Source: a virus | Lineage: Duplodnaviria; Heunggongvirae; Uroviricota; Caudoviricetes | IMG/VR virus record: IMGVR_UViG_2579779007_000007 | Length of the DNA: 35,575 nt | Reading direction: 5' to 3' (one strand) | In this document: positions 8,493-34,081 of the stretch, piece by piece | Position numbering within the stretch: position 1 is the stretch's first letter | Layout: each line of letters begins with the position of its first letter | Program-made: the position numbers and the translations under genes | The notes under the pieces: generated by a model | Seen by the model: the letters and a program-made list of their open reading frames with translations, nothing else | What the model was told of the DNA's origin: nothing | Database searches by the model: none

Positions 8493-10400
8493 ATGAAACT
8501 GATTTCTAATAAGGCAAAATTAAAAAAGATTCTCAGAAATGCAGCCAAATATATTACGCCACCGCCTAAACTCCTTCCATCGGAATGGTGCGAAGCGAAT
8601 CTAACGCTAGTCGATGGTCCTCGTGCTGGGGATAAAGTTAAATTGCTGTCATTTCAGAAAGGCATGATTGATGCTCCTTTCCTTGAGAAGAAAAAGAAGT
8701 ACGTTTTTTGTACGAGTGCGCAGATCGGAAAGACGACCATCATGTCAGGGATCATGTTTAACCAGATGGCAAACGATCCGTGTAATATCATTATCGGGCA
8801 AAGTACCGCTAAAGAAGTGGCTATGTACTTGAATACTAAGATCCGTCCTTCTATTGAAGCATGTCCGGCATTACAGGAAGTGGTAACAGATAAGAATGAT
8901 CGTAATGCGGTAAACAACAATAACCAGATTCAGCTAAAAACAAACCATTTCCTTTACATGGTTTCTTTGACCAGTCCTTCAAGTTTGCGCGGGCGTACTG
9001 CCAAGTTAGGGATTGTAGACGAATGCGACGCAGCAACAATCACCGAAGAAGGTTGCCCGGTGGCACTAACTGCAAACCGTTTAACTACCTTTGGTGATGA
9101 AGCTCGATTGATTGTTTCTAGTACCCCGACCAATAAGCTGGGAATCATTAACCAGCAATGGTTATCAAGTGATATGCGTATGTTTTTTGTTCCGTGTCCT
9201 CATTGCGGGGAACACCAGGTGATCGAGTGGGAAAACGTTCAATTTGAATGGCGTAACATTGATGGTAAGAACTTACCCGATCCTGATACCGCTCGTTATA
9301 TTTGCCCCCACTGTAAGAACGCATGGACAGAAGGGGAACGAATCAGGGCAGTAGCGCAAGGCGAGTGGAGAGCAACCCGTGAAAGTGAAGTAGCAGGATT
9401 CTGGATCAGTCGTCTGTATTCACCTTTCAGCACGATCCGCGCTTGTGTGGTTGATTTTAGTCATGCGTGGCAATCCTTTGATTTACAATCCTTTTTTAAC
9501 ACCGTGTTAGGCAAGGTATACGACGATCAGGACACGGCAGTAGAAGCAAATGAACTGGAACAACTCAAAACAGATGTTTCTATCGAGAATATCCCTGATG
9601 ACGTGATTTTCTTGTGTGCGGGTACTGACCAGCAATTAGATCGCGCAGAAACTACGATCATGGGCGTGGCAAAGGATAAGATTTATATTCTGGATCACCG
9701 CAGCTTTTACGATCATAACTGTGAACGATATGAATCACCTGTATGGGATAGATTAATCAACTTCCATAAAACCAAATTTACTACTGTATCGGGTGATCGT
9801 GTTCCTATGCTCGCCAGCTTCCTTGATACATCGAACGGTCGATTCACTCAAGCTGGATACCGTATTTGCGGCAAGTGGAAGAACTTACACGCTATCAAAG
9901 GTAGTTCTGCTGGTAACGCTCCGATCATTCCGGTTAAACCTACCCGCACAGGTGGTCATGAATTGCTTATGCTGGGCGTTAACGTTGGGAAATCCGCTGT
10001 TCGTGAAATGCTGGTTAGAAACCTGAAAGATAATCCTCATATTGGCTTAGAAATATCAGAAACCATTCCTGATGATTATCTCGATCAGCTTTTGAGTGAA
10101 TCCATCAAGCGTACTACTACTGGCGTGCGTTGGGTGAAAAATCCAGGTAGTACCCGAAACGAGGCTCTCGACTGTCTGGTTTATAGCTATGCTGCTTCTC
10201 GCTACGTTCTTTCAAAAATGTCATGGGATAAACTCATTGCAATGAAAGACAGCTTAAACCGTGTTGTCGAAGAATCCGTAGAAGCTCCTAAATCGCAATC
10301 TGACGAGCAAATCGAAGAAAATAAGCCAATCACACGACCACAACGTAAAAACATCGCCAGACGCCCAAATAGAGGCCGTAGCTGGGTAACATCGTTCTAA
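8493..10400 (+). CDS. terL: terminase large subunit, lambda gpA family
   Basis: 635 aa. Recalled gpA-family blocks: [45 protein letters not shown]. Confidence 0.9.
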
Positions 10401-10977: not shown

Positions 10978-12489
10978 ATGTTTAATCTTTTTCGACGCAA
11001 AAAGGCGGTAGAAACTCCAGTTAAAACTAATCACCGCCAACAACAACCAAAAATTTTCATCGACAAACAAGTAGAAAAATTTCAGAAAGATTTGTCTAAG
11101 CGTTCTTTGGGCTTAGTCGGTGATCGAATTGATGGGCAGCTTCAACAAGATACTATCACCGGAACGTTCAATAAGGCTCTCAAATCGAACGGTAAGCGCC
11201 TTTATGATCAGGGTCGTACTCTGGCCTTAAACACTTCCGTAGGCAGTCGATACACGCAATACATCACCGATATGGTGGTAGGTACTGGCCTAGATCCGAA
11301 GCCGTCAATCGTTAAATCAAATGGCAAACTTGATAGCGCACTGAATAAGCAGATCGAGAATGCTTTCTGGAAGTGGGCGCAGAATGCTAAACGCTTCTCT
11401 CGTAACGGTCGCTTTAACTTCCGTGAATTGCTGGTAATGGCTGAACGTGAGCGCGTTATGGGTGGTGAGTGTTTCATCGTTTTAACTAAAGAAAACAATG
11501 AGTTAAATGTTTCTATCCTGTCTGCTGATAAGTGCGACTGGACTCTCAACCGTGAAGTGAGCAAAGAACGTGCGATATATCAAGGTGTGGAGTATGCCGT
11601 AGAAACGATGAAGCCCGTGGCATACTGGTTTCGTAAAGTCAACCTACTGACTCAGACCTACACTGGTGATAACTATCGCGTCGATGCTTCGCAAGTATGC
11701 CATTATTATCAACCGCTTACCGCCGAATCCCTGCGTGGTGTGACTGACTTCCTGCCAGTGATTAAGGATATCGCACATCAAGATGCATTCCGCGAAACTG
11801 CGATCATCCAGAAACGCATTGCAGCTAGCTCTATGGGCTTTATCGAACGTCCGAAAGATTCTGGTGACGATTTTGATACTGGTGAAGAGGATGAACAATA
11901 TCAAGCGCCGGAAGTAGTACAGGACTTTGCACCGGGTACTATTCAGGAATTGCCGGAAGGGGCAACGATTAAGTCAATTCAGAGCGCCCAAAGTGGCGAT
12001 GACTTTAACAGCTTCAATGATGCGATGTTTACTAGCGTATCAATGGGCTTAGGCGTGTTTAAACAGGGCTTAACTGGTGATACCAGCCAGATCAACTACA
12101 GCGCAGCCCGCTACGGCGAATTGCTTCAACGCACACGAGTTAAAGCACTGCAAAACAAATTAATTGAAACAGTGGTATTGCCAATTTTTGAAGCATATCT
12201 ACGCCATTATTCCGCGCGTGGTATTGTTCCGATTCGTATTACTGCAATTCCGCATATTATCGACAACACTACTATTATTCGTCCGCGTTTTGAATCCGTC
12301 GATCCTATTAAAGACGTAAACGCTGATATTGCTTTAATTGATAAAGGACTTAAATCACGTACTGCCGTTATATTAGAACGTGGTGATGATCCTGAAAAAG
12401 TATTCTCAGAGATTCAAGCCGAAAAGAGCGCACTAAATATTATCGTTGATGGTGAGGGTGAAGAAAAAAATTCCCCAGCCGATCCCTAA
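10978..12489 (+). CDS. portal protein (lambda gpB-like)
   Basis: 503 aa, position after terminase, C-terminal block resembling lambda-type portals. Confidence 0.8.
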   Translation: MFNLFRRKKAVETPVKTNHRQQQPKIFIDKQVEKFQKDLSKRSLGLVGDRIDGQLQQDTITGTFNKALKSNGKRLYDQGRTLALNTSVGSRYTQYITDMVVGTGLDPKPSIVKSNGKLDSALNKQIENAFWKWAQNAKRFSRNGRFNFRELLVMAERERVMGGECFIVLTKENNELNVSILSADKCDWTLNREVSKERAIYQGVEYAVETMKPVAYWFRKVNLLTQTYTGDNYRVDASQVCHYYQPLTAESLRGVTDFLPVIKDIAHQDAFRETAIIQKRIAASSMGFIERPKDSGDDFDTGEEDEQYQAPEVVQDFAPGTIQELPEGATIKSIQSAQSGDDFNSFNDAMFTSVSMGLGVFKQGLTGDTSQINYSAARYGELLQRTRVKALQNKLIETVVLPIFEAYLRHYSARGIVPIRITAIPHIIDNTTIIRPRFESVDPIKDVNADIALIDKGLKSRTAVILERGDDPEKVFSEIQAEKSALNIIVDGEGEEKNSPADP

Positions 12490-12534
12490 TAACCAACGGG
12501 GGCGCAATGCCCCCAATTAATTAAAGGTGATTAA

Positions 12535-14547
12535 ATGCTTAAATTTCGCCGCGATCTTAACGGTTACGGTGGAGTTATTAATGAAGGGCATAACGATCAA
12601 TACGAATTTGAAATTGCTTTCTCAAGTACACAGCCTTATCAGCGCCAATTTTGGGATGAGCAAAATCAAGAAATGGTGGTATTAGATGAAATTCTGGTAC
12701 ATACACCGGAAGCGGTTGATCTGTCTCGTCTGAATAATAACGCTCCGTTGCTGTTCAATCACAATTTCGATAATCACATTGGTGTAGTTTGTAACGCTCG
12801 AATCGATGCGGATAACGTAGGTCGTGCTCTGGTTAAGTTCTCCAAGCATGGGACTTTGGCTAATGATATTCGTAATAAAGTCATTGAAGGTACGATGGAA
12901 AAAATTTCGGTCGGCTATGACATTAAAGAATATCACATCGACTACACCAAAGGACAATTGATTGTTACTAAGTGGGCACCCTATGAACTCTCATTTGTCA
13001 CCGTTCCCGCAGACGATACGGTCGGTTTAAATCGCTCTCTAAATACTATCACAGTTAATTTGGAGGCTAAACGCGATATGACTAAAGAACAAATCGAAGA
13101 AATCAAAGAAGAACAAGAACCCGCTCAGGTTGAAGAAACTCCGGTAGAAGAAAATAAAGAACCGGAAGTTGAAGAAACTCAAGAGCGCCAAGTTGAAGAG
13201 AATAAAGAAGATGAAAATCTCGAAGACGGAAAAGACGCTGAACATCCTGAAAGTGTTGATGATGATAGTTCAACTGTTCGGGAAACAGAAGAAGTAAAAG
13301 AAGAACGTGAAGCTGCTCCGGTTGAAGAAGAAAAAACCGAGGAAGTGGCTGAACGTTCCGAAGAAGACGAATTAGAAATTCGCGAAATTGCACGCGAGTT
13401 AAATATTAACGAAGACGATGAAGAATTTAAACGCGCATTGGCAAATAAAGAAATTACGCCGGAAGCATTCCGCACTAAGGCACTAAATAACATTACCAAT
13501 GCTCAACGTAATAACGAACAAATTAATAAGGAACAAATCATGGAAAAAACTTTCGATCTTAATAACGTAATCCGCTCCCTGGTAGATGGCGACGTGCTCG
13601 GCGCTAACGAAGCTGAATATTCCGCAATGGCTGCTACTGCAACTATGCAGCGTGGTCGTGCTGCTCGTGGTGGCTCTGTATTCGTTCCGGCTGCTGCTAT
13701 GCGTGCTGCTGCTGATGGCAACACCAAAGCTAATCTGGTTGCTATCACTGACGAAAAACTGATGACTGAATCCTACATCGAAATGCTGATGCCTCAGAGT
13801 GTTTTAGGCCGCCTCGGGGTGACTGTTTATAGTGGCTTGACTTCTCCGACCGCTATTCCAAAAATGACTAAATCCAGCGTTGACGCTTTCGGATTCGTAG
13901 ATGAAAATGGCGCTGCCCCCGAGTCACATGCGGAATTTTCGAACGTGAAACTGTCTCCGAAAACTTTTGCTGGTGGCAACCCGATCAGCCGTCAGTCGCT
14001 GAAAACCGTTCCGGGCATCGCTACCCTGATCACCGATCACATTAACAAATCTGTTCGGATCAAACTGGAACAACTGATTCTGTCTGATAAAGAAAATGCT
14101 CGTGGTCCGGCTGGTCTGGTTAAGCAACTGGTAGACGCTAGCCGCGTTACCAAGAAAGCTGCTTTCTCTTATAAAGATTTCCTCAAGGAGATTGCTCAGC
14201 TTACGGACGCTGGCGTTCCTGCTCAGGCGATCAAGTTTGCGATGAGCGGTGCAACTGCTGCTGAACTGGAATCTACCCTGAAAGATAACGGCGTTTCCGG
14301 TTATATCATCGAAAACGGCAAACTGGCTGGTTACGAAGTAGTTACTTCTGGCGTTATTCCGGCAGATCACATCGTTCTGGGTGACTTCTCCGGTATTACC
14401 ATCGGTGAGTGGGGCGGTCTGGAACTTGACATGGATCTAACTACATATCGGGATCGTGGGGCGGTAGTGCCTAGAATCTTTGTAGATTTGGACTACGTTG
14501 TAGCACAGCCGGAAGCGCTGAAAGTTCTTCACATCTCCGCTGACTGA
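12535..14547 (+). CDS. fused prohead protease (HK97/S78-like) - acidic scaffold-like linker - HK97-fold major capsid protein
   Basis: 670 aa. Residues 1-170 match the S78 prohead protease pattern, residues about 180-330 are E-rich, the C-terminal 340 aa are HK97-MCP-like. Ends with TGA. Confidence 0.8.
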   Translation: MLKFRRDLNGYGGVINEGHNDQYEFEIAFSSTQPYQRQFWDEQNQEMVVLDEILVHTPEAVDLSRLNNNAPLLFNHNFDNHIGVVCNARIDADNVGRALVKFSKHGTLANDIRNKVIEGTMEKISVGYDIKEYHIDYTKGQLIVTKWAPYELSFVTVPADDTVGLNRSLNTITVNLEAKRDMTKEQIEEIKEEQEPAQVEETPVEENKEPEVEETQERQVEENKEDENLEDGKDAEHPESVDDDSSTVRETEEVKEEREAAPVEEEKTEEVAERSEEDELEIREIARELNINEDDEEFKRALANKEITPEAFRTKALNNITNAQRNNEQINKEQIMEKTFDLNNVIRSLVDGDVLGANEAEYSAMAATATMQRGRAARGGSVFVPAAAMRAAADGNTKANLVAITDEKLMTESYIEMLMPQSVLGRLGVTVYSGLTSPTAIPKMTKSSVDAFGFVDENGAAPESHAEFSNVKLSPKTFAGGNPISRQSLKTVPGIATLITDHINKSVRIKLEQLILSDKENARGPAGLVKQLVDASRVTKKAAFSYKDFLKEIAQLTDAGVPAQAIKFAMSGATAAELESTLKDNGVSGYIIENGKLAGYEVVTSGVIPADHIVLGDFSGITIGEWGGLELDMDLTTYRDRGAVVPRIFVDLDYVVAQPEALKVLHISAD

Positions 14548-14676
14548 ACTAGCGTAGAACCTTCTGAACCTTCCCCCGATTTGGGGGAAGAAAATCTGAT
14601 TCCATCTCAGGAAGAAGAAGTTCAAGAGGTTACGGCGAAAGCCACAGTTAAAAAACAACGTAAAACTAAAGAATAA
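14548..14676 (+). other. in-frame 42-codon extension after the capsid TGA (candidate readthrough segment)
   Basis: Same frame as 12535..14547, no ATG. Encodes TSVEPSEPSPDLGEENLIPSQEEEVQEVTAKATVKKQRKTKE, then TAA. Confidence 0.45.
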
Positions 14677-14681
14677 TAATT

Positions 14682-14710
14682 AGCCCTGCCTTAACGGTGG
14701 GGCTTTTTTG
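14682..14710 (+). terminator. intrinsic terminator after the capsid extension
   Basis: AGCCCTGCC-ttaac-GGTGGGGCT followed by TTTTTT. Near-identical copy at 20632..20660. Confidence 0.7.
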
Positions 14711-14739
14711 TATGTAAATACTCCATAAAGGGGGTAACT

Positions 14740-15030
14740 ATGTTCAAATTATCAGAATCACAATTATCAAGAATGTTTAAGAGTGCTCCTGTATTTTCGG
14801 TGGAAGGTGGTAAATCAATTCGTGCTTATCATGAAATTACCACTACCGACGAACAAGGGGTAATTACAGAATCAGAATTTCTATTTTGTCGTGAGGGAGA
14901 CTTAAATCAGGGTGATGTTGTCATTGTAGACGGTGAACGCTTCAAAGTTCAATACGTTAAGCGCAATGGTGATAATACTTCTGATTGCTTTATTGCTCGT
15001 GCAGGGGGTACACATGCTCGCTACCGTTAA
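14740..15030 (+). CDS. head-tail connector/adaptor protein (putative, 96 aa)
   Basis: Position after capsid gene, RBS AAGGGGGTAA. Confidence 0.55.
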   Translation: MFKLSESQLSRMFKSAPVFSVEGGKSIRAYHEITTTDEQGVITESEFLFCREGDLNQGDVVIVDGERFKVQYVKRNGDNTSDCFIARAGGTHARYR

Positions 15031-15439
15031 TAATATGCCTAGACTGAAAATCAAACGCGCCTTGCAGGATATTATCGAACAAGATTTAGGTCTGGCTTTA
15101 AACGTAGAACAAACTCAGCAAGGCTTTATTAGTGATGACGTGGTTTGTTGGATTACCGGAATGAATGAGACTTACAATAGGGTCCGTGGTGGTAATGCAA
15201 TGCAAGCTGAATGCGTTATCGAAATGCAGTTGTATTCTCAGAATCATGAAACCAAAATTCATGAGGGTATTTGCCAGATAATCCAGATTCAGCCAGATAA
15301 CCCACGTTTTAAAGATTTGGGCTTCTCAATTTCAGATATCACTCCAGTAGCCTCTAATACCGATTATGACGATGATTCTAGTGATGGGGGTATCGTTGGG
15401 ACACTTAGCCTTAAATTTTCTTATCTAGCGCGTTTTTAA
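15014..15439 (+). CDS. head-tail joining / tail completion protein (putative, 141 aa)
   Basis: Start chosen at the ATG preceded by AGGGGG, overlapping the upstream stop. The ORF-track start at 14933 is probably too far upstream. Confidence 0.5.
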   Translation: MLATVNNMPRLKIKRALQDIIEQDLGLALNVEQTQQGFISDDVVCWITGMNETYNRVRGGNAMQAECVIEMQLYSQNHETKIHEGICQIIQIQPDNPRFKDLGFSISDITPVASNTDYDDDSSDGGIVGTLSLKFSYLARF

Positions 15440-15448
15440 GGGGTAATA

Positions 15449-16282
15449 ATGAATATTACACAAGATAACTTAGATATTTTCACTGGATCACATGTTGAAG
15501 TGTCGATCTCTAACCAGATAGACAATCAGGTCGACTTTTTCGATCCTAGCTTTAGTTCTATGGAGAACATCGCAGCATTCCCTACGCTAACCGAATCCAC
15601 AGAGATAGAAACTCTGGAAGAGTACGATCAGGACGCTACGGGGAAACTTGCTGGTTATCGTAGACTGGAACCGACAACACTCACATTAAACCGTGTTCTT
15701 GACGATGAACATCAAGCAATGTTGATGAAAGCGGTAGAGGATAAAACACCTTTACGCTTCCGTATGTTCTATGTTGTGAACTCTGGCTATAGTGCTGCTA
15801 ACACTGGTTACTATGTCATCTATGACGCTTATGTCACTAGTCACAAAACCCGTGGCGCAGATAACAAAGCTGTAACACTGGAATTTAAACTTGAACCAGA
15901 TGGCGGGATTTTGGCAAGGGGTATAGCGACCGAGGGAAAAATTCTGCGACAAGGGGATTATGGCGTAGGTGCAGGTGTACATCCATTCACGGGTCCAATT
16001 GATAGTGATGCTTTAGCAGGAAACCGTTTCGTAACTTACAAGGGAACTGCTAGCGGTAATCCATACTCAGCCGACACATCATTAATTCACCTTCAAGCTA
16101 ATGAGCATGGCGCATGGCAATTAACCTGTAATACTTCCGGTGCACCACGTTTACGTGTCCGAAATATTCAGGAAAACGGTCGCTCTGAATGGATCAAGGT
16201 ATATTCCACCAATGAGAAACCGACACCTAGCGAAATTGGCGCAGTGGCTAAGACTGACCGGATCGATTTCGGCGAATACTAA
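15449..16282 (+). CDS. tail-tube-like protein with C-terminal fibre-like extension (paralog of the 20030 gene)
   Basis: 277 aa. N-terminus (NLDIFTGSHV...GKL...LTLT) aligns with the 156-aa protein at 20030. C-terminus carries KPTPSEIGA, also present in the tail fibre. Confidence 0.55.
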   Translation: MNITQDNLDIFTGSHVEVSISNQIDNQVDFFDPSFSSMENIAAFPTLTESTEIETLEEYDQDATGKLAGYRRLEPTTLTLNRVLDDEHQAMLMKAVEDKTPLRFRMFYVVNSGYSAANTGYYVIYDAYVTSHKTRGADNKAVTLEFKLEPDGGILARGIATEGKILRQGDYGVGAGVHPFTGPIDSDALAGNRFVTYKGTASGNPYSADTSLIHLQANEHGAWQLTCNTSGAPRLRVRNIQENGRSEWIKVYSTNEKPTPSEIGAVAKTDRIDFGEY

Positions 16283-16315
16283 AGGATTCTCCTACCTAAA
16301 TAAAACATGAACGTT

Positions 16316-16346
16316 GGGAGGTTAACGCCTCCCTTATTCCTGTTTT
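16316..16346 (+). terminator. putative intrinsic terminator
   Basis: GGGAGG-ttaacg-CCTCCC followed by a T-rich tract. Confidence 0.45.
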
Positions 16347-16364
16347 ATAGTGAGGTGATTCTAG

Positions 16365-19300
16365 ATGCAATCAATCCAATTTAAACGCACACAAACGGCT
16401 GGTAAAAAGCCGACGCCGGAACAATTATCACAGGGTGAGATCGCCTTACAACTGGCGGACCATGTGATTTACACCAAAGACAAAAATAATAACGTAGTCC
16501 AAATTAGTGTTTCTCCAGAAAAACACGCTGAACTTAACACTAAAGTAGACAATAACAAAACTAGCACTGACCGTGTTATTGCTTCCAACAAACAAGAGGC
16601 CGCTAATAATCTGGCTAGTGCTAAAGCTGAACTGAATCAGACTATTACCACGAAAGATACAGCGACCAATAAGCGCATTGATGCTACCAACACCACTGTT
16701 AGTAACTTAACCCAGACAGTTACGGCAAATAAAACCGATGCCGACACTAAGATCAATAACCTTACGGGGACCGTATCTGCGAATAAGACCGCAATTGAAA
16801 GAACCGTTGCCGCAAACAAATCTGATGCAGATAGCAAACATGCAGCTTTAACGAAAACGGTCACTGACAATAACACCGCGATTAACAACAAGGTTAATAC
16901 CACTAACACCAACGTTAGCAACTTAACTAAAACTGTTACTGCAAATAAAACCGATGCAGATAACAAAATTTCTAGCTTAACTAGCGCGGTTGCAGCTAAC
17001 AAGACAGCGATCGAAAAGACTGTTTCCGACAATAAGAAAGACGCGGATACTAAGATTACCAATCTTACTGGCACTGTTAATAGCAACCATACCGCAATTA
17101 ACAACAAGGTAGACCAGAATAAATCTTCTACTGATGCCGCAATTGCAGCCGCTAACAAACGAATTGATGGTATTGAAGGTAGCAATGATGCTCTTTACAT
17201 CAAGAAGAATACCAATACTAAGCATGGTGGGTATCTGTTAAGCAAGACAGCTAACTATCTGGAAGACCAGACATCACGAGATCTTAACTACTTTGGTGCT
17301 TTCCGTACCAATGGTCAAGATGGACTCATGGATCTAACTCTTAACGTTCCTCACTCTTCCGGTAAAGCGCACGGTCGCGGATTTACTTTCCGTTATGCGT
17401 CTGGTGGATCTCGTGTTGAAACCTATGGTTTTGATAGAGAAGGACAGAAGAACTTTAGCTATAAGATGTATCACGAAGGTGATAAACCGACTCCTGCTGA
17501 AATTGGCGCATATACCAAAGGCGAAATTGATAAGATGTTTATTAAAAATGTCACAATGTCTGTTCCTTCTGGTAGTGAATCCCGTGCTTATTTCAAGATT
17601 GCTACGGCTACGATCCCACAAAATGGTCGTATGGTAATGCTTCGTATCTTCGGTGGTAATGGTTATAACGTTAACTCCTATGATCAGGTTGATTTCCTTG
17701 AAATTGTTATCCGTAGTGGTAACGATAGACCTAAAGGTGTTAGTGTTGCTGCATATCGTCGAAATGCTCTTAACGTTCATCAAGTATTTGCGGTTAATAC
17801 TTCCGGTGATAACTACGACATTTACGTTAACTACGGTCGTTATACTGATAACGTTATTGTCGAATATGGTAAGACTAGCGGTGTTTCACTGACTGTTCAT
17901 GACACCCCAGATATGACTAACGTTAAGCCGTCTACTGGTGTTACAGATGGACGTGTTATTACAATGTTCAATACCGAAAACAAGGCCGGAACGTTGATGT
18001 TTGATAATAACGGTCAGGGAACATATGATATTGTCAGTTTGAATAACGATTCAGGTACTGGTAAAAAATATCTGCGTAAATTCCGTAGTAAAGCCGCAGA
18101 AACAATCTGGCATGAAACTGTTCAAGGTAACGTATATCGTTTAGCGACTGGCACTACCGATTCTAGCGAAGTTCTACGAATCACTGGTCGCACTATGTAT
18201 ACTGGTAAAGCTGTTTTTGATGCCGGATCTAATACTATTCGTATGCAGCGACCGAATGGTCAAAGTAACTATTTGGAATATTGGGATAACCGTAACGGTG
18301 CAAATAAACGTCAAGGTTGGATCGGTTATGGAAATGCCGATACTAACGCTATGCAGATGTATAACGATAGCGGTACTAACAATATTGGCTTAGAACAAAG
18401 CGGTCAAATCTCTCTGAATACTGGATCTACTAAAGTAGTTTATACCAACGGCGAGTATGTATCTGCTAACTCAAATGCATTCCGTATGATTTACGGTAAC
18501 TATGGTGCATTCTGGCGTAATGATGGTCAAAACGTATATTTTCTGTCTACTGCCGAAAATGATAAATTTGGTGGTTGGAACGGCTATCGTCCATTCATTT
18601 ACAATCTGGGTAGCGGTAATGTTACTTTGGGTGGTGATGGTAACGAAGGTGCATTAGTCTTAGAACGTGCAAGTCGTGCAGCTCGTTTTGCTGGAAACGC
18701 TTTCATCAAAGGTCAACATTTAACACTTGATGCTGGTGCTGGACAATCCCGCGACTATTTCCGTTTTAACCATTGGGGTGATAGCAATAACGCTCGCGAC
18801 AACATTCTATATCTCGAAGACAGCAAAGGACGCCATTTCAGCACCGAACGTAATATGGCTACAGGTGCATTAAAAGCATACTTCTTAGGAGATCTTGAAG
18901 TTGCTGGTCAAATGCGATGGGGTAAGAATACCGGACAATCTAGCTTCAATATTCGTGCATGGGGTAATGATACTCGTAAACAAGTATTAGAATGCGCAGA
19001 TGAAAGCGGCTGGCATTTCTACACACAGCGTGCTGGCGGTCCTGATACTACCGCAATCGAGTTTAGCGTAAACGGTAAAATTAACGCTCCCCGACTGTCT
19101 ATTAGTCAGGATGCAACCATTCCTAAGTTTAATAGCGGTTTTGGTGTTGGTGTTGCTAACGGATTGGGTGGAAATTCTATTGTTTTAGGCGATAGTGATA
19201 CTGGATTTAAACAAAACGGTGATGGTGTCCTTGATACCTACGCTAATAACGTTAATGTTGTTCGCCATACGTCAGGCGGTGTTACATTTAACCGTCGTGT

Positions 19301-19973
19301 TGTTGTTGCTAACAAAAATGGTTTAGGTTATTCCGATATCTCTGATGTAACTCGTGACCGTGCTCCATTCCTGGTTAACATGGATAGTATTAAGGGGTCT
19401 GCTGCATATTTCCCGATCATCGCTGGTTACAGTAACTTAGGTGATGTTGGTTATCGTCAGTCCTTCGAGTTTGGTTGGACGGGTAGCGGGTCGAATAGCA
19501 CATGGCGTACTGGTATTATCCGTATGCGTGGCGATAACGCCAACGGGCAGCAAGCACGCTGGGAATTTACTATGGATGGTGATTTTACCTGCCCCCGTAA
19601 CGGTAGCTTTAACGATGTTTACATTCGCTCTGACTCCCGTTTGAAGATTAACAAGGAAGAATTACAGGACGGCGCATTAGAGAAAGTAAACTCCCTGAAA
19701 GTCTACACCTACGATAAAGTTAAATCTCTTTCAGATGACACAGTGGTTAAACGCGAAGTAGGTATTATTGCTCAGGATCTGGAAGAAGTGTTGCCGGAAG
19801 CAGTAGGTATTCAATCCACCGAAGATCCAGAACAACCGGAAGCAATTAAGACTATTTCTAACTCTGCTGTTAATGCCTTGATTATTAAAGCGATTCAGGA
19901 AATGGACGCCAAATATCAAGCTAAGATTGAAGCATTGACTAAAGAGATTGCCGAACTCAAAGCAACTAAATAA
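16365..19973 (+). CDS. long tail fibre with C-terminal S74 intramolecular-chaperone domain
   Basis: 1202 aa. Repetitive shaft, KPTPAEIGAY motif, C-terminal YIRSDSRLKINKEEL... matching the autoproteolytic chaperone domain of T5 pb1 and endosialidase-type fibres. Confidence 0.85.
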   Translation: MQSIQFKRTQTAGKKPTPEQLSQGEIALQLADHVIYTKDKNNNVVQISVSPEKHAELNTKVDNNKTSTDRVIASNKQEAANNLASAKAELNQTITTKDTATNKRIDATNTTVSNLTQTVTANKTDADTKINNLTGTVSANKTAIERTVAANKSDADSKHAALTKTVTDNNTAINNKVNTTNTNVSNLTKTVTANKTDADNKISSLTSAVAANKTAIEKTVSDNKKDADTKITNLTGTVNSNHTAINNKVDQNKSSTDAAIAAANKRIDGIEGSNDALYIKKNTNTKHGGYLLSKTANYLEDQTSRDLNYFGAFRTNGQDGLMDLTLNVPHSSGKAHGRGFTFRYASGGSRVETYGFDREGQKNFSYKMYHEGDKPTPAEIGAYTKGEIDKMFIKNVTMSVPSGSESRAYFKIATATIPQNGRMVMLRIFGGNGYNVNSYDQVDFLEIVIRSGNDRPKGVSVAAYRRNALNVHQVFAVNTSGDNYDIYVNYGRYTDNVIVEYGKTSGVSLTVHDTPDMTNVKPSTGVTDGRVITMFNTENKAGTLMFDNNGQGTYDIVSLNNDSGTGKKYLRKFRSKAAETIWHETVQGNVYRLATGTTDSSEVLRITGRTMYTGKAVFDAGSNTIRMQRPNGQSNYLEYWDNRNGANKRQGWIGYGNADTNAMQMYNDSGTNNIGLEQSGQISLNTGSTKVVYTNGEYVSANSNAFRMIYGNYGAFWRNDGQNVYFLSTAENDKFGGWNGYRPFIYNLGSGNVTLGGDGNEGALVLERASRAARFAGNAFIKGQHLTLDAGAGQSRDYFRFNHWGDSNNARDNILYLEDSKGRHFSTERNMATGALKAYFLGDLEVAGQMRWGKNTGQSSFNIRAWGNDTRKQVLECADESGWHFYTQRAGGPDTTAIEFSVNGKINAPRLSISQDATIPKFNSGFGVGVANGLGGNSIVLGDSDTGFKQNGDGVLDTYANNVNVVRHTSGGVTFNRRVVVANKNGLGYSDISDVTRDRAPFLVNMDSIKGSAAYFPIIAGYSNLGDVGYRQSFEFGWTGSGSNSTWRTGIIRMRGDNANGQQARWEFTMDGDFTCPRNGSFNDVYIRSDSRLKINKEELQDGALEKVNSLKVYTYDKVKSLSDDTVVKREVGIIAQDLEEVLPEAVGIQSTEDPEQPEAIKTISNSAVNALIIKAIQEMDAKYQAKIEALTKEIAELKATK
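16640..17170 (+). repeat. intragenic tandem repeats encoding two ~69-aa shaft repeats
   Basis: Repeated NLT.TVTANKTDAD.KI..LT..V.ANKTAIE.TV. The low-complexity repeats create the spurious antisense ORF 16637..17185. Confidence 0.6.
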
Positions 19974-19980
19974 TAAAAGT

Positions 19981-19999
19981 CGGGGGACTAGTTCCCCCG
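19981..19999 (+). other. stem-loop after the fibre gene (weak terminator candidate)
   Basis: CGGGGGA-ctagt-TCCCCCG with no clean T-run. Confidence 0.3.
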
Positions 20000-20029
20000 T
20001 AATAACAATTTTAATTAAGGGGTAATTCT

Positions 20030-20500
20030 ATGTCTCAATTTAATGATATTTTTACTGGTGGTCTGGTAAGTCTGTTCTATCACGCTGATACCACTAACAC
20101 CGCTCTCGATCACTCCGGTTACGAAGAAATTAAAGAGTGTGCTGGTTTTCCTGAAACTGGTATCGAGCGCGGTACTGTAGAAGTTAAATCCTTCTCTTCT
20201 CAGTATAACCGTAAGCTGGTAGGGAAGCTGAACGTTCCTGATCTGACTCTTACGGTGAATTACATCCCCGGGGAGAGTGTCCATGAGAAGCTCATAAAGG
20301 CTGCCGAAGACGGTACTCGAATTCAGATTAAGATTGAATACTATGTTGATGCAGCAAAACAGACTGGTATTCGCACCGCTTTCAACGGCTTCATTTCTAA
20401 AGTTGCTATGAACGGTGGCGATGAAGAAGTGGTAACTAAAGAGTTTACCTTCGCGGTGGACGGAAAGCCGATCAAACAGGAAATCTTCACTGCCGGATGA
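20030..20500 (+). CDS. major tail tube protein (putative)
   Basis: 156 aa, upstream of the chaperone and tape-measure genes. Paralogous to the N-domain of 15449..16282. Ends with TGA. Confidence 0.6.
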   Translation: MSQFNDIFTGGLVSLFYHADTTNTALDHSGYEEIKECAGFPETGIERGTVEVKSFSSQYNRKLVGKLNVPDLTLTVNYIPGESVHEKLIKAAEDGTRIQIKIEYYVDAAKQTGIRTAFNGFISKVAMNGGDEEVVTKEFTFAVDGKPIKQEIFTAG

Positions 20501-20626
20501 ACTAACGAAGAACTTCCTTTAATAGAACCGGAACCACTACCGGAACATGAAGCGGTGGTGATTCCAGAAGTAGAAGAAGTTACGGCGAAAGCCACAGCAA
20601 AACGAGGCCGCAAGGCTAAGAATTAA
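20501..20626 (+). other. in-frame 41-codon extension after the tail-tube TGA (candidate readthrough segment)
   Basis: Same frame as 20030..20500, no in-frame ATG. Encodes TNEELPLIEPEPLPEHEAVVIPEVEEVTAKATAKRGRKAKN, then TAA. Confidence 0.45.
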
Positions 20627-20631
20627 TTTTA

Positions 20632-20660
20632 AGCCCTGCCTTAATGGTGGGGCTTTTTTA
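20632..20660 (+). terminator. intrinsic terminator after the tail-tube extension
   Basis: AGCCCTGCC-ttaat-GGTGGGGCT followed by TTTTTT. Confidence 0.7.
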
Positions 20661-20674
20661 TTGGAGTAATCAAA

Positions 20675-21181
20675 ATGGCAAATGTCGTTAAAGTTCCTGG
20701 CTGGATCGGGTCATCTGCTGTATCGGTGACGGGTAAGCGATGGATGAAAGAAGCACTAACAGCTTTAAAAGTTCCGGCTCCGCGTAATATGTCGGCAATG
20801 GCTGGTCGTGGTATGGATACGGTTGTAGCTACTGCTGCATGGTCTACTTCATTGGGTAATAACTGGGGGGTAACTGCTTCAAACTATCCTGTTTCCGGTA
20901 TGCAAAGCAAAGGATCTATGGAGAACCCCGAAAACGTGGGCGTAGGGCGTCTGATTGGCGTTATCGTTGGTCAATTCAATGGCGGTACTCCTACTATGGC
21001 TGTATATCTCCAGAACGGTAGAGCGGGGAATATAACCGTTAATTTGGGTGGTGCTACTGTCACTGTTCCTTATAACAGTATGCAAAGTGGTTTTCATTAC
21101 TATTGGTTAAGCAATCCTCCGGCTGCTTTCCTCAATAACATTAAGAAGACTGGCACTAAGCAGACTTTGAAAATCTCTTAA
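20675..21181 (+). CDS. hypothetical tail-associated protein (168 aa)
   Basis: ORF with RBS GGAG, located between tail tube and chaperone genes. Confidence 0.5.
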   Translation: MANVVKVPGWIGSSAVSVTGKRWMKEALTALKVPAPRNMSAMAGRGMDTVVATAAWSTSLGNNWGVTASNYPVSGMQSKGSMENPENVGVGRLIGVIVGQFNGGTPTMAVYLQNGRAGNITVNLGGATVTVPYNSMQSGFHYYWLSNPPAAFLNNIKKTGTKQTLKIS

Positions 21182-21223
21182 ATTCTAAATAAACATATCG
21201 AATTAACTTAAGAGGAAACAAGA

Positions 21224-21532
21224 ATGAATATTAATGAAATGCTGAAAGCTCTTTCTCCGAAACGCGAATCTCTGACCATCGGTGGATTCACTTTCTATGC
21301 TCGCCCTATGTCAGTAAAAGAATTTAACGAACATGTTTTCAATACCGATAAAGATGACCGTGATGAACGTTCTATTCTTCGTTGTATTGAAGATGAAGAC
21401 GGTAAACCAGTATTTGAATCTATGGAACAAGTTAAGGCACTGTATACTAACGTCCGCAGTGAATTAATCGGTTTGGTTGCTCAAGCGTCATTGATGCAAG
21501 ATCCGGCAGTAATTGAAAACGAGGTAAAGTAA
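21224..21532 (+). CDS. tail assembly chaperone (gpG-like, putative)
   Basis: 102 aa acidic protein immediately upstream of the tape measure region. Confidence 0.5.
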   Translation: MNINEMLKALSPKRESLTIGGFTFYARPMSVKEFNEHVFNTDKDDRDERSILRCIEDEDGKPVFESMEQVKALYTNVRSELIGLVAQASLMQDPAVIENEVK

Positions 21533-21561
21533 ACCCGCTTCTGTGTTTCTATTTCCGGCAA

Positions 21562-21903
21562 ATGATGAGATCGGGGCTTAGTAAAGATGAAATGGATAAT
21601 ATGCCAATCACTCTGTTTTGGAAATTATATATTTTCGACACCTACTTAGAACCACAAAGCCCCGCGTTTCATGATATGCAGAATGCGATGTTGCAATATT
21701 CCATGTATATGACGTCGCAAGGAATGACACGCGAAACTGCACGCAAACTCAAGCCTAGCCAATTCCAATTAATTAGAGAAGAAAAACTCTTTAAAACTAA
21801 AGAAGAACTGGAAGAAATTGCACGCAAGAAAGAAGAAGAACGTAAAGCGGCAATGCTGAACATGTTTGATCCATCTTTGCTTGAGAAACTCAGAAGCGGT
21901 TAA
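21562..21903 (+). CDS. tail assembly protein (gpT-like position, putative)
   Basis: 113 aa. Its frame is open from 21517, overlapping the end of the previous gene by about 15 nt, but no canonical slippery heptamer is visible. Confidence 0.4.
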   Translation: MMRSGLSKDEMDNMPITLFWKLYIFDTYLEPQSPAFHDMQNAMLQYSMYMTSQGMTRETARKLKPSQFQLIREEKLFKTKEELEEIARKKEEERKAAMLNMFDPSLLEKLRSG

Positions 21904-21914
21904 AGGGGTAATTT

Positions 21915-24347
21915 ATGACAAAACATATAGTAACAATAGAAGGGGATAATAAAGGTCTAAGGAGAAGTACCAATGAAGCCGCCGACCTTCTCGATAGTTT
22001 GTCTGAAAAGGCAAGTAATATTGATTTTGGTGGTGGCTTATCTGGTCTGACTGGATCTCTTCGTGGGATCGCTGGCTCTGCTGGTTTGGCTGCTGGTGGT
22101 ATCGGCTTAGTTGCGACCGCAGTGGTTGCAGCCGCTAAAGCTGGCGCGGAATACGTTAAACAATATTCAGAAGTATCTAAGGCGACCGGACTCTCGATTG
22201 AATCCCTTCAAAGACTGGAAAAGGAATTTTCTGGTACTGGCCTAACAGTTGAAAAATTCGGTGATATCAACAAAGACACCTTAGATAAGATGGGTGATGC
22301 ATGGGCTAACGGTGGTGGTATTGCTGATGACTTAGAATCGGTTGGTCTTAAGTTAGAAAACTATGCTCACTTCATGACTGATCCGCAAGGTGGTATGAAA
22401 GCGGCGATCCAAGTGTTCTATGACATGAAGAAAGCCGGAAAATCAATGGCTGAAATCAAGTTCATGATGGAATCTTTAGCCAGTGATTCAAGTCATATGA
22501 CCAGCCAGCTTGAGAAATATAATAGTGCTCAAGAGGCGATGATCGCTATTCAGAATCAATCTGTTAACGTCACCGAAGAAAACGCTAAAAAATATGATAA
22601 ATTTTCTCAGAATATTAATAAGCTGGAAAATAACCTGAAAGGCGCAGCCATGACCATTTCTGGTCCTTTGGTTGATAGCTTAAACTGGTTATTTGACTGG
22701 TTTAATATTGATTGGGAAAAGAGTTCTCTATTCAGGGCATTAGATCGACTGAATAAAGAAGGCAAGACCGCAACTGGTGGTATTCTTAACGCCAACCATA
22801 AAGACGCTCAAAAGATTATTGACAAGTACAATAAAGAAAAGCGTTGGAATAATCTGGCAGATTGGGAAAAGGCCGCGATACGTGGTGCTGGTGTCGACCC
22901 TCGTACTGCTGGCTTTGATGTTGAAGGATTTAAGAAACGTTTTGGTGGGTCTTATAAAACTTCAAGTGGTGCTCTGATTGTCGTAGATGCAGGTGAACAT
23001 CTAACACGCAAGGCAGATCCTAACACTGATTTGACTATACCAAATAAACCAGTAAGACCAGAATCATTGGGTAAATCTGGCAACGAGAAGAAAGCCGAGG
23101 AAGAAGCCAAAAAGAAAGCGGAAGAGGCAGCTAAAAAGGCTAAGGAAGCCGCAGAAAAAGCACAGAAAGCACGCGAGGATGCAATCAAGCGACTGAATGC
23201 ACTTGATGTTAAATTGCAAGGGCAAGTTGCAGCGTCTATCACTTCTCAAAATAGCCAGTTGCAAAACAGCTTAAAAGATGTGAACGACGCGTTAGCTCTG
23301 GGCTTAATCTCTCAGGAAGACGCAGCCGCGAAACGCCAGGCGCTAATCGATCAGAATACTGAAAACGTTTATAAAATGATGTTGGGTGCTGATCCGATTG
23401 ATGCTCTGAATGCTTTAACACAATTGCAACAAATCAGGGACAACGAGCTAGAAAGCCATAAACGTTTACTTGATGGTAAAGCTATCTCCTACGAAGAATA
23501 TATGCGTCGTGTGAACGATACCGAGCAAAACTATTCTCAGATTGAAAATTCTTTACAGGGAATGGATGGTTATAAAACCAATCAATTAACTAGTGGTTAT
23601 GATTATCAAGACTCAAATAATCCGTTTGCTAAATTTAATGCAATCGATAAAGAGAAATCGGATGCTGAACAAGATTATAAGACCGATAAACTCAAGATTG
23701 ACGGTATTAATGATCCGGCTAAACGGATGGCTGCATTAGAAAAACTCAATGAAAACCATCAAAAACGGATGGCTGCAATTGAAAAGAAATATGCTGATGC
23801 TCGTCAGTCAATAGCTGATGATATGTATGGCGGTTTTGCTGCTGCAATGACTCTCTTCGGGCAGGAAAACACTAAAGCTATGCAGATGGCTTTCAATGCT
23901 CATAAGGCATTCTCCATTGGACAAGCGACGGTGAACATGTGGACGGCTGCTACCGATGCATGGAACGATCCGACCAACGTCACCACAGGTCAAAAAATTG
24001 CTGCTGCTGCATTGGCTGTTTCTCAGAACATGGGGAACATCGCAAACATCAAGTCTACTAACGTTAGCGGTATGGCTCATGATGGTATCGATAACATCCC
24101 TCGTGAGGGTACATGGTTGCTTGATAAGGGTGAACGAGTAGTTGATCAGCGTACTAACGGTGATTTGAAAGACTTCTTATCTGCTCAAAAATCAGGCGGT
24201 GGTAACTCTCAGCCGATTGAAGTTAATGCGCCTTTGAACATTAACGGCAATGTTAATAGCTCAGACAAGATGGTTATGGATGCTATCAAACGTCACGCTA
24301 AGTTAGTTGCTCAGGCGGTAGAAGACGCACAGCGTCGTAAGATGTAA
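21915..24347 (+). CDS. tail tape measure protein
   Basis: 810 aa. N-terminal Gly/Ala-rich hydrophobic segment, long coiled-coil and K/E-rich regions, position before tail-tip genes. Confidence 0.85.
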   Translation: MTKHIVTIEGDNKGLRRSTNEAADLLDSLSEKASNIDFGGGLSGLTGSLRGIAGSAGLAAGGIGLVATAVVAAAKAGAEYVKQYSEVSKATGLSIESLQRLEKEFSGTGLTVEKFGDINKDTLDKMGDAWANGGGIADDLESVGLKLENYAHFMTDPQGGMKAAIQVFYDMKKAGKSMAEIKFMMESLASDSSHMTSQLEKYNSAQEAMIAIQNQSVNVTEENAKKYDKFSQNINKLENNLKGAAMTISGPLVDSLNWLFDWFNIDWEKSSLFRALDRLNKEGKTATGGILNANHKDAQKIIDKYNKEKRWNNLADWEKAAIRGAGVDPRTAGFDVEGFKKRFGGSYKTSSGALIVVDAGEHLTRKADPNTDLTIPNKPVRPESLGKSGNEKKAEEEAKKKAEEAAKKAKEAAEKAQKAREDAIKRLNALDVKLQGQVAASITSQNSQLQNSLKDVNDALALGLISQEDAAAKRQALIDQNTENVYKMMLGADPIDALNALTQLQQIRDNELESHKRLLDGKAISYEEYMRRVNDTEQNYSQIENSLQGMDGYKTNQLTSGYDYQDSNNPFAKFNAIDKEKSDAEQDYKTDKLKIDGINDPAKRMAALEKLNENHQKRMAAIEKKYADARQSIADDMYGGFAAAMTLFGQENTKAMQMAFNAHKAFSIGQATVNMWTAATDAWNDPTNVTTGQKIAAAALAVSQNMGNIANIKSTNVSGMAHDGIDNIPREGTWLLDKGERVVDQRTNGDLKDFLSAQKSGGGNSQPIEVNAPLNINGNVNSSDKMVMDAIKRHAKLVAQAVEDAQRRKM

Positions 24348-24352
24348 TTAAA

Positions 24353-24397
24353 AGCCCTCATAGTGATAAATAATCATAAAACTATGGGGGCTTTTTC
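24353..24397 (+). terminator. long-stem hairpin plus T-run between tape measure and tail-tip genes
   Basis: 11-bp stem AGCCCTCATAG...CTATGGGGGCT with an 18-nt loop, then TTTTT. Confidence 0.4.
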
Positions 24398-24398
24398 T

Positions 24399-24959
24399 AT
24401 GTTCAAATCCAAGAATATTAAAATCACAGATTTTACTCTTAAATCAAAACAACCTTTCTTCAAGGCGCAATCTATCTCCGGTAAGTTCCAGCGTCGCTTT
24501 ACTGGCATCCATTTTTACGAAGCAGAATTTACCGCGAATTACATGGCTCAGGATATTAACGAAGTAAAAGAATTTGTAGCACGTCACCTTTTTGGTCGTC
24601 CTTTTAGTGTGCCACTGTCTTACTTTTCAAAATATACAGGTGATGTACGCCAGATGGTAACGGCTGCTGCTGGTACTGCTCGCGGTGGGCGTAAGGTGAG
24701 AATCTCCAACTTCACCGGAACACTGAAAGCGGGAACTGTCATCCAGTTTGAGAACCACAAGAAAATCTACACGATCACCGAAGACGTGAAATCAGGTGGT
24801 GAAATGAAACTCTTCCCTAACTTGCGTCAGAACGTCCTGGCGGGTGAGGTGATCAAGTATCAGAACGTAGAAGGTGAATTTGTTCTCAAAACTGAAAATA
24901 TCGATTGGAAGATCGCCCAGATTGGCAAGATGAAATTCGAATTAGTGGAGAATGTATAA
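24399..24959 (+). CDS. minor/distal tail protein (gpM-like position)
   Basis: Start placed at the ATG after the hairpin (MFKSKNIKITDF...). The ORF-track start at 24363 lies inside the hairpin. Confidence 0.5.
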   Translation: MFKSKNIKITDFTLKSKQPFFKAQSISGKFQRRFTGIHFYEAEFTANYMAQDINEVKEFVARHLFGRPFSVPLSYFSKYTGDVRQMVTAAAGTARGGRKVRISNFTGTLKAGTVIQFENHKKIYTITEDVKSGGEMKLFPNLRQNVLAGEVIKYQNVEGEFVLKTENIDWKIAQIGKMKFELVENV

Positions 24960-25612
24960 TGGCAACTATTCAGGAATCATTCAGCAAACTATGCACTAAT
25001 CTTGACTTCATCGAGGTCTACAACGACCAGACAGGTCAGAACGTGTCTAGATTGACGCTACCGCAGCTTTTTTCCACTGGATCGATGTTTCACATTATCG
25101 AAGTGATTACAGCGTCAGGGGACGTTCTACGGCTTACTGATGGGTATTTCGATTTGGACTATAACGGATTTACGTATCTCGCAACGGGTGATTTTCTTCA
25201 AATCTCATCGAATACCGAAGAGAAGGAGATCAACAACAACGGGATCAACGTAACCGTTTCTAACGTTCGCGAAGAATACATTACTCTCATTCGAAACAAG
25301 CAATTCGATAAATCAGATGTGAAAATCGAGATGGTGTTCCTGAACCCCAACACGGGCAAAGTTGAAACCACTTACCCTGTTTTCCGTGGGGTAGTCGATT
25401 CCATCGGGATTAACATCGAACATGAAGATGATGAGTGTAAAAACGAATCAGAATTTCAGCTTAATAGTATCTGGGAAGTTCTAGATAAAAACGCTCGTAG
25501 TCATGCCTCCGATGGTATCCACCGATCCTATGTTGGAAACGAGAACGATCTATTCTTCTCTCGTGCCGGGAAGTGGCAAAGCGAGTCGAAGTGGTTTAGC
25601 TCTAAGAAATAA
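24959..25612 (+). CDS. minor tail protein (gpL-like position)
   Basis: ATG overlaps the upstream TAA (TAATG) and gives MATIQESF... Call is by gene order. Confidence 0.5.
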   Translation: MATIQESFSKLCTNLDFIEVYNDQTGQNVSRLTLPQLFSTGSMFHIIEVITASGDVLRLTDGYFDLDYNGFTYLATGDFLQISSNTEEKEINNNGINVTVSNVREEYITLIRNKQFDKSDVKIEMVFLNPNTGKVETTYPVFRGVVDSIGINIEHEDDECKNESEFQLNSIWEVLDKNARSHASDGIHRSYVGNENDLFFSRAGKWQSESKWFSSKK

Positions 25613-34074: not shown

Positions 34075-34081
34075 ACCATTT

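Follow-up and report, generated by a model that had tools for sequence, protein, structure and literature searches.

In-frame extension cassettes behind the TGA stops of the tail tube and capsid genes of an Escherichia coli prophage, and their proposed expression by UGA readthrough

The tail tube gene of an Escherichia coli prophage ends in TGA and continues in the same frame into a short open stretch, and a close counterpart of this stretch lies behind the capsid gene. The locus raises the question of whether the stretch is translated and by what route it would be joined to the tube protein. The gene lies at positions 20030-20500 of IMG/VR record IMGVR_UViG_2579779007_000007; the whole stretch of DNA analysed (35,575 nt) is referred to as the window and represents a nearly complete siphophage-type prophage of about 35 kb. 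The whole was best explained by UGA readthrough adding one shared, portable cassette peptide to both the tube and the capsid proteins, a reading that was considered likely. Taken by itself, readthrough as the production mechanism was judged probable from the sequence comparisons described below.

The two 3' cassettes and their conservation among relatives

A first-pass annotation had placed the TGA of the tube gene at 20498-20500, followed by 41 in-frame sense codons to a TAA at 20624-20626, and both the coordinates and the peptide proved exact. The terminator expected after this TAA was found as a hairpin at 20631-20655 with a T-run. The capsid gene was found, as had been noted, to end in TGA as well and to continue into a 42-codon in-frame extension of the same architecture. 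The parts of the two cassettes were as follows.

20030-20497, plus strand: tail tube protein of the lambda gpV N-domain type, 156 codons (20030-20500 with the stop)
20498-20501, plus strand: stop TGA with A in the fourth position (UGA-A), next codon ACT; proposed to be leaky
20501-20623, plus strand: whole tube extension, 41 codons, TNEELPLIEPEPLPEHEAVVIPEVEEVTAKATAKRGRKAKN
20501-20578, plus strand: proximal extension, an acidic, proline-rich spacer, TNEELPLIEPEPLPEHEAVVIPEVEE, 26 residues, net charge -9
20579-20623, plus strand: distal extension, a basic tail, VTAKATAKRGRKAKN, 15 residues, net charge +6
20579-20597, plus strand: 19-nt core, GTTACGGCGAAAGCCACAG, with a GGC-GAAA-GCC mini hairpin (GNRA-type); capsid copy at 14629-14647
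20624-20626, plus strand: TAA closing the extended frame; TAA in all relatives
20631-20661, plus strand: intrinsic terminator with a 10-bp stem, a 5-nt loop and a T-run, 4 nt past the TAA
14545-14547, plus strand: capsid TGA-A stop
14548-14679, plus strand: paralogous capsid extension, 42 codons, then tandem TAA TAA
14682-14709, plus strand: terminator of the capsid cassette, second-best plus-strand site; repeat families D3 and D8

The tube terminator was the top-ranked terminator-like plus-strand site within 12000-25000, and the terminators after the two extensions were near-identical. Together the two 3' cassettes form a 94-nt direct repeat of 79% identity (family D3) that includes the identical 19-mer, and the basic tail is common to the capsid extension (VTAKATVKKQRKTKE). 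The first-pass annotation had described one homologous, optional C-terminal peptide behind TGA on two unrelated, abundant structural proteins; the structural part of this claim was supported and came out strengthened. The duplication took in the whole cassette, from stop codon to terminator, as one portable unit, a point beyond that earlier description.

The extension was predicted to be disordered, with an AlphaFold2 predicted local distance difference test score (pLDDT) below 50 over most of its length. A Pfam search with the 41 residues gave no match at E <= 10. A folded decoration domain of the immunoglobulin (Ig)-like or fibronectin type III (FN3) kind, of about 80-100 residues, was excluded by the length of 41 residues, the lack of a Pfam match and the low pLDDT. 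An AT-hook was also rejected: the tube tail KRGRKAK is without proline and gave no match, and the capsid tail KKVGRPPKAK scored 13.3 bits against a Pfam cutoff of 17.4 (E = 0.079), so that its likeness to an AT-hook is a weak resemblance only.

An open frame alone is weak evidence, because 6 of the 36 window genes are followed by at least 41 open codons (four of them since the next gene shares the frame). Its significance rests on comparison with relatives. The tube sample comprised 24 IMG/VR relatives, one ENA contig and six complete E. coli genomes from different countries (31 in total); haplotype counts refer to distinct haplotypes, 15 for the tube and 18 for the capsid. The first-pass annotation had made its reading depend on constraint of the extension across related genomes, and the reading frame was found to be conserved in them. 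All 31 tube relatives carry TGA ACT followed in frame by 36, 39, 40 or 41 sense codons and then TAA; the codon before the invariant TGA varies (GGA, TCT, GGT or GCT). The capsid TGA is followed by A, as ACT or AAT, in 32 of 32 in-frame IMG/VR relatives, and by A in 35 of 35 in-frame capsid copies. Capsid extensions comprise 28, 42, 43, 44 or 45 codons in E. coli relatives and 25 in Providencia, and are always in frame. The diverged Providencia prophage capsid reads in frame TGA ACT AAC GAA GAG ..., encoding TNEELPEEEPLPVATEKSTKRRKSK. Replacement of an extension-bearing TGA by a sense codon or by TAA was not seen among the sampled sequences.

Sense frame 0 was open in every haplotype (15/15 tube, 18/18 capsid) and frames +1 and +2 in none. 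No antisense frame was open across all haplotypes, and the one that is mostly open differs between tube and capsid. Differences in extension length were all multiples of three, from about seven indel events with zero frameshifts or stops. The first 60 nt of the tube extension are about as variable as the tube gene body (nucleotide diversity, pi, 0.16-0.18), and the proximal capsid extension is more variable than the capsid gene body (pi 0.16-0.42 over the first 60-90 nt of the extensions of both genes). This variable spacer remains acidic and proline-rich, and a diverged variant (FEEQPQPIQDEPTVIPE) retains its E/P/Q character. In the basic tail, four K/R positions are kept between the paralogues via synonymous or R/K changes (CGA/AAA, CGC/CGT and AAG/AAA at the kept positions), and their neighbours change; variant tails read KRSRKAKD, KKVGRPPKAK and KKERKTKAK, and that of Providencia KRRKSK. 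Judged from these comparisons, the sequence behind the stop behaves in evolution like an in-frame coding sequence, and the stop is preserved as such.

The tube protein, its leaky stop and the rival readings

The product of 20030-20500 is a lambda-type tail tube protein (gpV N-domain) by sequence, fold and gene position. It matched PHROG 158 at E = 2e-21, and the Pfam models of lambda-like tail tube proteins lay near their cutoffs (PF16461, 26.4 bits with a cutoff of 26.1; PF16460, 27.9 bits with a cutoff of 28.4). A sequence search of solved structures gave no match, so a fold search was needed. Foldseek returned the lambda gpV tube structures 8k36 and 7t2e at E of about 1e-6 and probability 1.0, together with other siphophage tube proteins, and in the AlphaFold2 model of a relative (P0001) the tube blocks outside the 46-68 loop had a mean pLDDT of 82-93. 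A tail assembly chaperone gene lies directly downstream of the tube gene in relatives; in the window the chaperone genes gave weak, sub-cutoff Pfam matches and the tape measure gene is next. The protein matches in length the N-domain of lambda gpV (residues 1-156). In lambda a C-terminal Ig domain protrudes from the tube exterior, and in the engineered lambda-foo C-terminal fusions to truncated gpV are shown at low copy on the tube exterior (PMC8718954, PMC6260602). The extension therefore starts at the attachment point of lambda's external domain.

In the window TAA ends 31 of the 36 genes and TGA-A is found only in the capsid and tube genes; within the block of genes that runs from terminase to lysis, no other gene ends in TGA. 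Highly expressed bacterial genes prefer TAA as stop (PMC5289835), and UGA followed by A is described as prone to misreading by tRNA-Trp in E. coli in a passage of the same source that cites Engelberg-Kulka 1981. For a UGA reporter in the wild type of E. coli, readthrough amounts to about 2% at 37 °C and about 4% at 25 °C, under cyclic AMP (cAMP) control (PMC10570021). The leaky stop of the phage Qbeta coat gene reads TAC TGA ACT GCA in record NC_001890, which is annotated with a 5% chance of readthrough; the hexamer TGA ACT is that of both sites here. All genes with the in-frame extension ended in TGA-A and all extension-less alleles in TAA, the latter being the E. coli tube alleles at about 60% and 72% identity, the tube genes of Salmonella, Providencia, Edwardsiella and Atlantibacter, and the capsid genes of Salmonella, Atlantibacter and more distant relatives.

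A profile search of 5.8 billion proteins with the extension peptide found no constitutive fusion, and only a miscalled open reading frame (ORF) of 33 residues. A 198-residue 'fusion' (P0001) was considered as a Trp-codon variant and rejected; its DNA has TGA, which the gene caller evidently read as Trp. Annotation artefacts from the cassette (ENA contig L070, P0001 and P0029) comprise this 'fusion' and the 33-residue ORF, which starts spuriously at an in-frame TTG within the capsid extension. Both extensions are left unannotated by the Prokaryotic Genome Annotation Pipeline (PGAP).

In the proposed cassette a leaky UGA-A opens onto a spacer rich in acidic residues and proline; a short basic tail comes next, and a tight TAA and a strong terminator close the unit. 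At the UGA most ribosomes would terminate and release the usual tube protein of 156 residues. In a small fraction of cases, probably a few percent, an amino acid would be inserted there, most likely Trp from near-cognate tRNA-Trp, and 41 residues would be added; the predicted junction is ...EIFTAG-W-TNEELPLIEPEPLPEHEAVVIPEVEEVTAK. These longer subunits would be built into the tube together with normal ones, the tail of each virion would bear a handful of flexible tethers with positively charged tips, and the same logic would hold for the head. Since the C-terminus points outward in lambda-type tubes, the tethers would lie on the tail exterior, and such display would be compatible with the outward C-terminal additions found on tubes of this type. 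A rough estimate gives 8-17 extended capsid and 3-7 extended tube subunits per virion, assuming 2-4% readthrough, a T=7 head of about 415 subunits and about 175 tube subunits (from the 810-residue tape measure). By analogy with other recoded decorations, the leaky stop would hold occupancy down, perhaps because full occupancy would be harmful. As to function, a low-copy external tether giving weak electrostatic adhesion to polyanionic surfaces (lipopolysaccharide, capsule, DNA or mucus) is put forward tentatively.

Several points weigh against readthrough of the two cassettes as set out above. The relatives sampled share descent and are not phylogenetically independent. Translation, the readthrough level and the incorporation of extended subunits are inferred and not observed, and external exposure of the capsid C-terminus is argued by analogy with T7 display. 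Published readthrough levels are those of reporters in K-12-derived laboratory strains (BW25113, MG1655); natural isolates carry a more active release factor 2 (RF2), and readthrough in them could be lower. Some readthrough systems, though not all, have a stimulatory RNA structure 3' of the stop; no conserved one was found here, the predicted hairpins lying 25-50 nt downstream and being lost in variants, so the stop context alone would have to suffice. Variable sites at codon positions 1, 2 and 3 number 11, 9 and 14 in the extension against 41, 38 and 114 in the gene body. With so weak a codon-position bias the amino-acid constraint must be loose, and mainly frame, composition and basic residues are constrained; the weak third-position bias fits a loosely constrained disordered peptide. 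The 19-nt core, which spans six codons, shows zero synonymous changes in any IMG/VR copy of either gene and only rare nonsynonymous variants, where about eight variable sites were expected had third positions varied as they do in the gene bodies (in 62-73% of codons). The core variant VTEKST, which resembles the Providencia form, occurs in one complete E. coli genome. In an exact-match scan of IMG/VR the 19-mer was confined to this prophage family, with at most two copies per contig. The stretch that begins with the distal extension and includes the terminator is the least diverse (pi 0.004-0.05), and the 30-nt block over the terminator T-run has a pi of 0.016 in relatives. Coding alone does not account for this distal conservation at the nucleotide level. 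The conservation of core and terminator speaks for a constraint on the nucleotides themselves, added to coding or in its place, or for gene conversion; possible causes of the core invariance are gene conversion between copies, recent spread of the cassette or a second, RNA-level function.

Such a constraint could mean that the conserved object, whether RNA or DNA, is a 3'-terminal element of the two highest-expressed late messages (a terminator plus a stabiliser upstream of it, a site of processing or of antitermination, or a small RNA derived from the 3' end) and that the open frame is incidental. This was held to be improbable. The invariant core and low distal diversity agree with it, as do the duplication of the cassette along with its terminator and the z-scores of folds that include the terminator (-3.1 and -4.6). 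The mini hairpin of the core and the hairpin GGTGG-GACGT-CCACC of the capsid GRPP variants, which also occurs in an apparently compensatory GGCGG...CCGCC form (L033, L035), are hints of RNA-level function. An element of this kind leaves unexplained, however, that the frame is never lost in the variable proximal 60-90 nt, that indels are of whole codons, that only the sense frame is open in 33/33 haplotypes, that basic residues are kept across codon changes, and that the extension pairs with TGA-A and its absence with TAA. Rfam gave zero matches at gathering score anywhere in the window, and the larger predicted hairpins are not conserved. A complementary site for the 19-mer, as a small-RNA seed would have, is absent from the window; E. 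coli targets were not searched. RNA-level constraint could also act as a second layer alongside translation.

The extensions might otherwise be relics of longer ancestral C-termini that were truncated by nonsense mutations and whose downstream codons have not yet decayed. Short constitutive basic tails in relatives (the Edwardsiella tube protein, and distant or Salmonella capsids) lend this some colour, but it was judged very improbable: across E. coli and Providencia, about 65 sequences of the two genes retain the TGA, with gene bodies that diverge by up to about 15-20% at the protein level, and the many substitutions and roughly seven indels in the extension have left zero frameshifts or stops. 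Two independent nonsense mutations on the same leaky UGA ACU context are unlikely, and sense-codon revertants number 0 in 5.8 billion proteins. Scarcely credible is a different coding role for the region, be it a small protein with its own start, a gene on the antisense strand or a site of selenocysteine insertion. Mechanical ORFs do lie on the minus strand over both extensions (20341-20613 and 14437-14658), the 33-residue ORF from the in-frame TTG of the capsid extension is a database entry, and UGA doubles as a selenocysteine codon. Against an internal start, no start codon or ribosome-binding site is conserved and the short capsid form is without an in-frame start. Against an antisense gene, every antisense frame is closed in at least one haplotype, and tube and capsid differ in the one favoured. 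Against selenocysteine, no conserved hairpin (selenocysteine insertion sequence, SECIS) lies 3' of the UGA, and the downstream sequences differ between genes and variants. No tRNA genes, and hence no suppressor tRNA, were found in the window.

The surrounding prophage and the spread of the cassette

A 901-nt query around the tube gene was 100% identical to E. coli CE0007a (NZ_CP119011), in which the prophage sits in hicB, and related sequence was present in 22 of 5426 complete E. coli genomes. The hicB antitoxin gene is split by the prophage, with hicA adjoining (window ends; L069 123-431 and 35716-35832), and a large serine-type recombinase is encoded at the right end of the prophage (32395-34089, minus strand). 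A DNA search of a phage collection found no close cultured relatives, and only a gp38 fragment was matched; the nearest isolate at the protein level is DCP80, with 43-46% identity. A scan of GTDB genomes with the capsid profile returned a single Atlantibacter locus and nothing further. The other genes of the late region were as follows.

8493-10400, late operon: lambda-type large terminase
10978-12489, late operon: portal
12535-14547, plus strand: fusion gene of prohead protease, scaffold and major capsid (Pfam Peptidase_S78 and Phage_capsid; PHROG 617, E = 7e-94)
Between the capsid fusion gene and the 277-residue tube-like protein, late operon: head-tail connectors
15449-16282, late operon: 277-residue tube-like protein
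16365-19973, late operon: T4-like long tail fibre
20675-21181, plus strand: gp38-type adhesin gene (Pfam Gp38_N, PHROG 1121)
Between the gp38 adhesin and tape measure genes: G/T-type tail assembly chaperones
21915-24347: tape measure protein, 810 residues

The N-terminal half of the 277-residue protein weakly matches the tail-tube PHROG that the 156-residue tube protein also matches (E = 5.5e-8), and the protein is kept in all relatives between the head-tail connector and fibre genes. Between the protease and capsid domains, window positions 13050-13400 encode an extremely acidic, repetitive, E/P/V-rich stretch (repeat families D4 and D7) that presumably represents the scaffold or delta region.

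Three alleles of the tube gene occur among the prophages that have the capsid cassette in common. The allele at 84-100% always has TGA-A and the extension. The allele at about 60% ends in TAA-T and that at 72% in TAA TAA, each with a different terminator directly after. The 3' end of the 72% allele (L115/L116) reads GCT GAA TAA TAA AATTAGCC. It resembles a capsid-type cassette that has lost its extension by a precise deletion between GAA/TGA and GAA/TAATAA, and suggests that cassettes may be both gained and lost. The capsid cassette has the wider distribution: E. coli and Providencia both carry it, and Edwardsiella has a homologue in the -1 frame. The start of the tube cassette is like that of the short capsid and Providencia forms (TGA A[CA]T AAC GAA GA[AG] [CT]T[TG] CC). 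On these grounds, and because the terminator is the same, the whole unit, stop and terminator included, was most likely copied from a capsid gene onto one tube allele.

The gp38 adhesin gene lies downstream of the extension-bearing tube allele in 12/12 cases and is absent downstream of extension-less tube alleles in 14/14 (E. coli, Providencia, Salmonella and Atlantibacter); the Edwardsiella locus has a gp38-like gene on the upstream side of its tube gene. The fibre, the extension-bearing tube gene and gp38 behave like a single exchangeable mosaic block (window 16365-21181; L121-L144). Alternative blocks have the 60% or the 72% tube allele and neither extension nor gp38, and the genes flanking the block are 80-99% identical among E. 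coli loci. Docking of the tether on the T4-like long fibre with its gp38 adhesin is a speculative idea suggested solely by the gp38 linkage. A broader proposal is a mobile 'leaky-stop display cassette' that recombines between structural genes, from capsid to tube, and gives head and tail one sticky tether at a dose set by the host; this was thought rather unlikely. With the dose set by host UGA readthrough (temperature, cAMP), the virion surface would report host physiology.

Capsid relatives with tails in another frame were also found. The capsid gene of an Edwardsiella tarda prophage (L071 2700-2860; also L158) ends TTG GTA AAG CAA GGG TGA, and a homologue of the extension, ARVIPTGREEVSVKSGRKPKTDN, follows in the -1 frame and reaches the terminator. 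The gene may have exchanged readthrough for -1 frameshifting, or it may hold a decayed copy. More distant capsid relatives (about 41-43% identity) end in TAA (L065/L155, L066/L156, L059/L149, L061/L151 and, for DCP80, L119 4740-4900) and have basic -1 frame tails of 20-35 codons that run to the terminator, with A_AAA_AAG, GAA_AAG or similar a few codons upstream. Between L065 and L066 the -1 frame tail differs by whole-codon indels and synonymous changes. Other distant capsids, or those of Salmonella, have short constitutive Ala/Lys tails (...PAEAKAAKQ, ...EAKSKA, ...EASKAK), and the Edwardsiella tube protein has the constitutive basic tail ...VIPEAVAAKEK. These sequences suggest that an optional basic capsid tail is an old theme that may have been reached by different recoding routes; different recoding routes to the same end have been noted for Ig-like domains (PMC5009743).

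In the G/T chaperone gene of the window (21224-21532) an apparent -1 shift lies at GAG GTA AAG TAA (21521-21532), and the -1 frame is open to 21903, overlapping the G gene by 4 codons only. GTA AAG, the apparent G/T chaperone shift motif, is conserved in E. coli, Salmonella, Providencia and Edwardsiella relatives, and the same motif occurs in the Edwardsiella capsid gene.

Comparison with known systems

Long and short forms of phage head and tail proteins made by recoding are already known, but as products of frameshifting. Among bacterial viruses, to our knowledge, the use of stop-codon readthrough is essentially confined to the textbook case of Qbeta. The full-text literature searched yielded no account of stop-codon readthrough in tailed-phage structural genes, an absence that is not proof. 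If the proposal is true, programmed readthrough extends to tailed double-stranded DNA phages, and a recoding signal and its payload would be movable as one module. The two genes would offer a simple natural system (TGA to TAA or TGG) for asking why low occupancy by a surface peptide is selected, and the capsid family, with readthrough, -1 frameshift and constitutive tails, a natural series on limited surface-peptide dose. A systematic blind spot in annotation would also be exposed, with about 170 nt left unannotated by PGAP and a code-4 'fusion' plus a spurious ORF from other pipelines. The cassette would further be a natural template for low-copy phage display in E. coli.

In the Qbeta A1 system, also of E. 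coli, a few percent of ribosomes read through the UGA at the end of the major coat gene, and a C-extended minor capsid protein enters the virion; the TGA ACT hexamer (NC_001890) is identical to those of the tube and capsid sites here. Qbeta is a single-stranded RNA levivirus with an extension of about 200 residues, whereas the present case is a tailed, double-stranded DNA temperate phage with 41 residues predicted to be disordered. The A1 extension is folded and has a role in infection. Here, in contrast to Qbeta, two unrelated genes share one cassette, and the extensions are without homology to that of Qbeta.

In the Listeria phages PSA, A118 and A500, recoding near the 3' end yields C-extended forms of the capsid (Cps) and of the tail shaft (Tsh) protein alike (PMC5009743). 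Here the capsid and tail tube genes each carry the cassette, from which a second, C-extended product would be made. The Listeria forms arise by +1 or -1 frameshifting at slippery or proline codons, whereas an in-frame stop is involved here, and their two extensions are not described as one shared cassette. A long form derived by frameshifting, with the extension in +1 or -1 behind a slippery site, was rejected for the present genes: the extension lies in frame 0 directly after the stop, with +1 and +2 closed in every haplotype, and so lacks the defining feature of the frameshift group.

T7/T3 10B, SPP1 gp17.1* and frameshifted Ig-like domains are substoichiometric, outward C-terminal additions, several of them dispensable, and such frameshift-appended additions to heads and tails are thought to give weak surface adhesion (PMC5009743, PMC8718954). 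They differ in being made by frameshifting and in being mostly folded Ig/FN3 domains, whereas the present peptide is short, charged, predicted to be unstructured and without a Pfam domain. Lambda gpV and lambda-foo share with the tube extension the same attachment point, the outward C-terminus of a tube domain of about 156 residues, and low-copy fusions are tolerated there; the gpV domain is constitutive and folded, however, and lambda-foo is man-made. The Edwardsiella and distant capsids (L065, L066, DCP80) have homologous extensions or basic tails but carry them in the -1 frame behind GTA_AAG, A_AAA_AAG or GAA_AAG, as candidates for frameshifting; we know of no description of these capsid-family variants. 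As far as the sequences indicate, the mechanism would work like that of Qbeta A1, and the biology would resemble the paired long forms of the Listeria phages and T7 10B.

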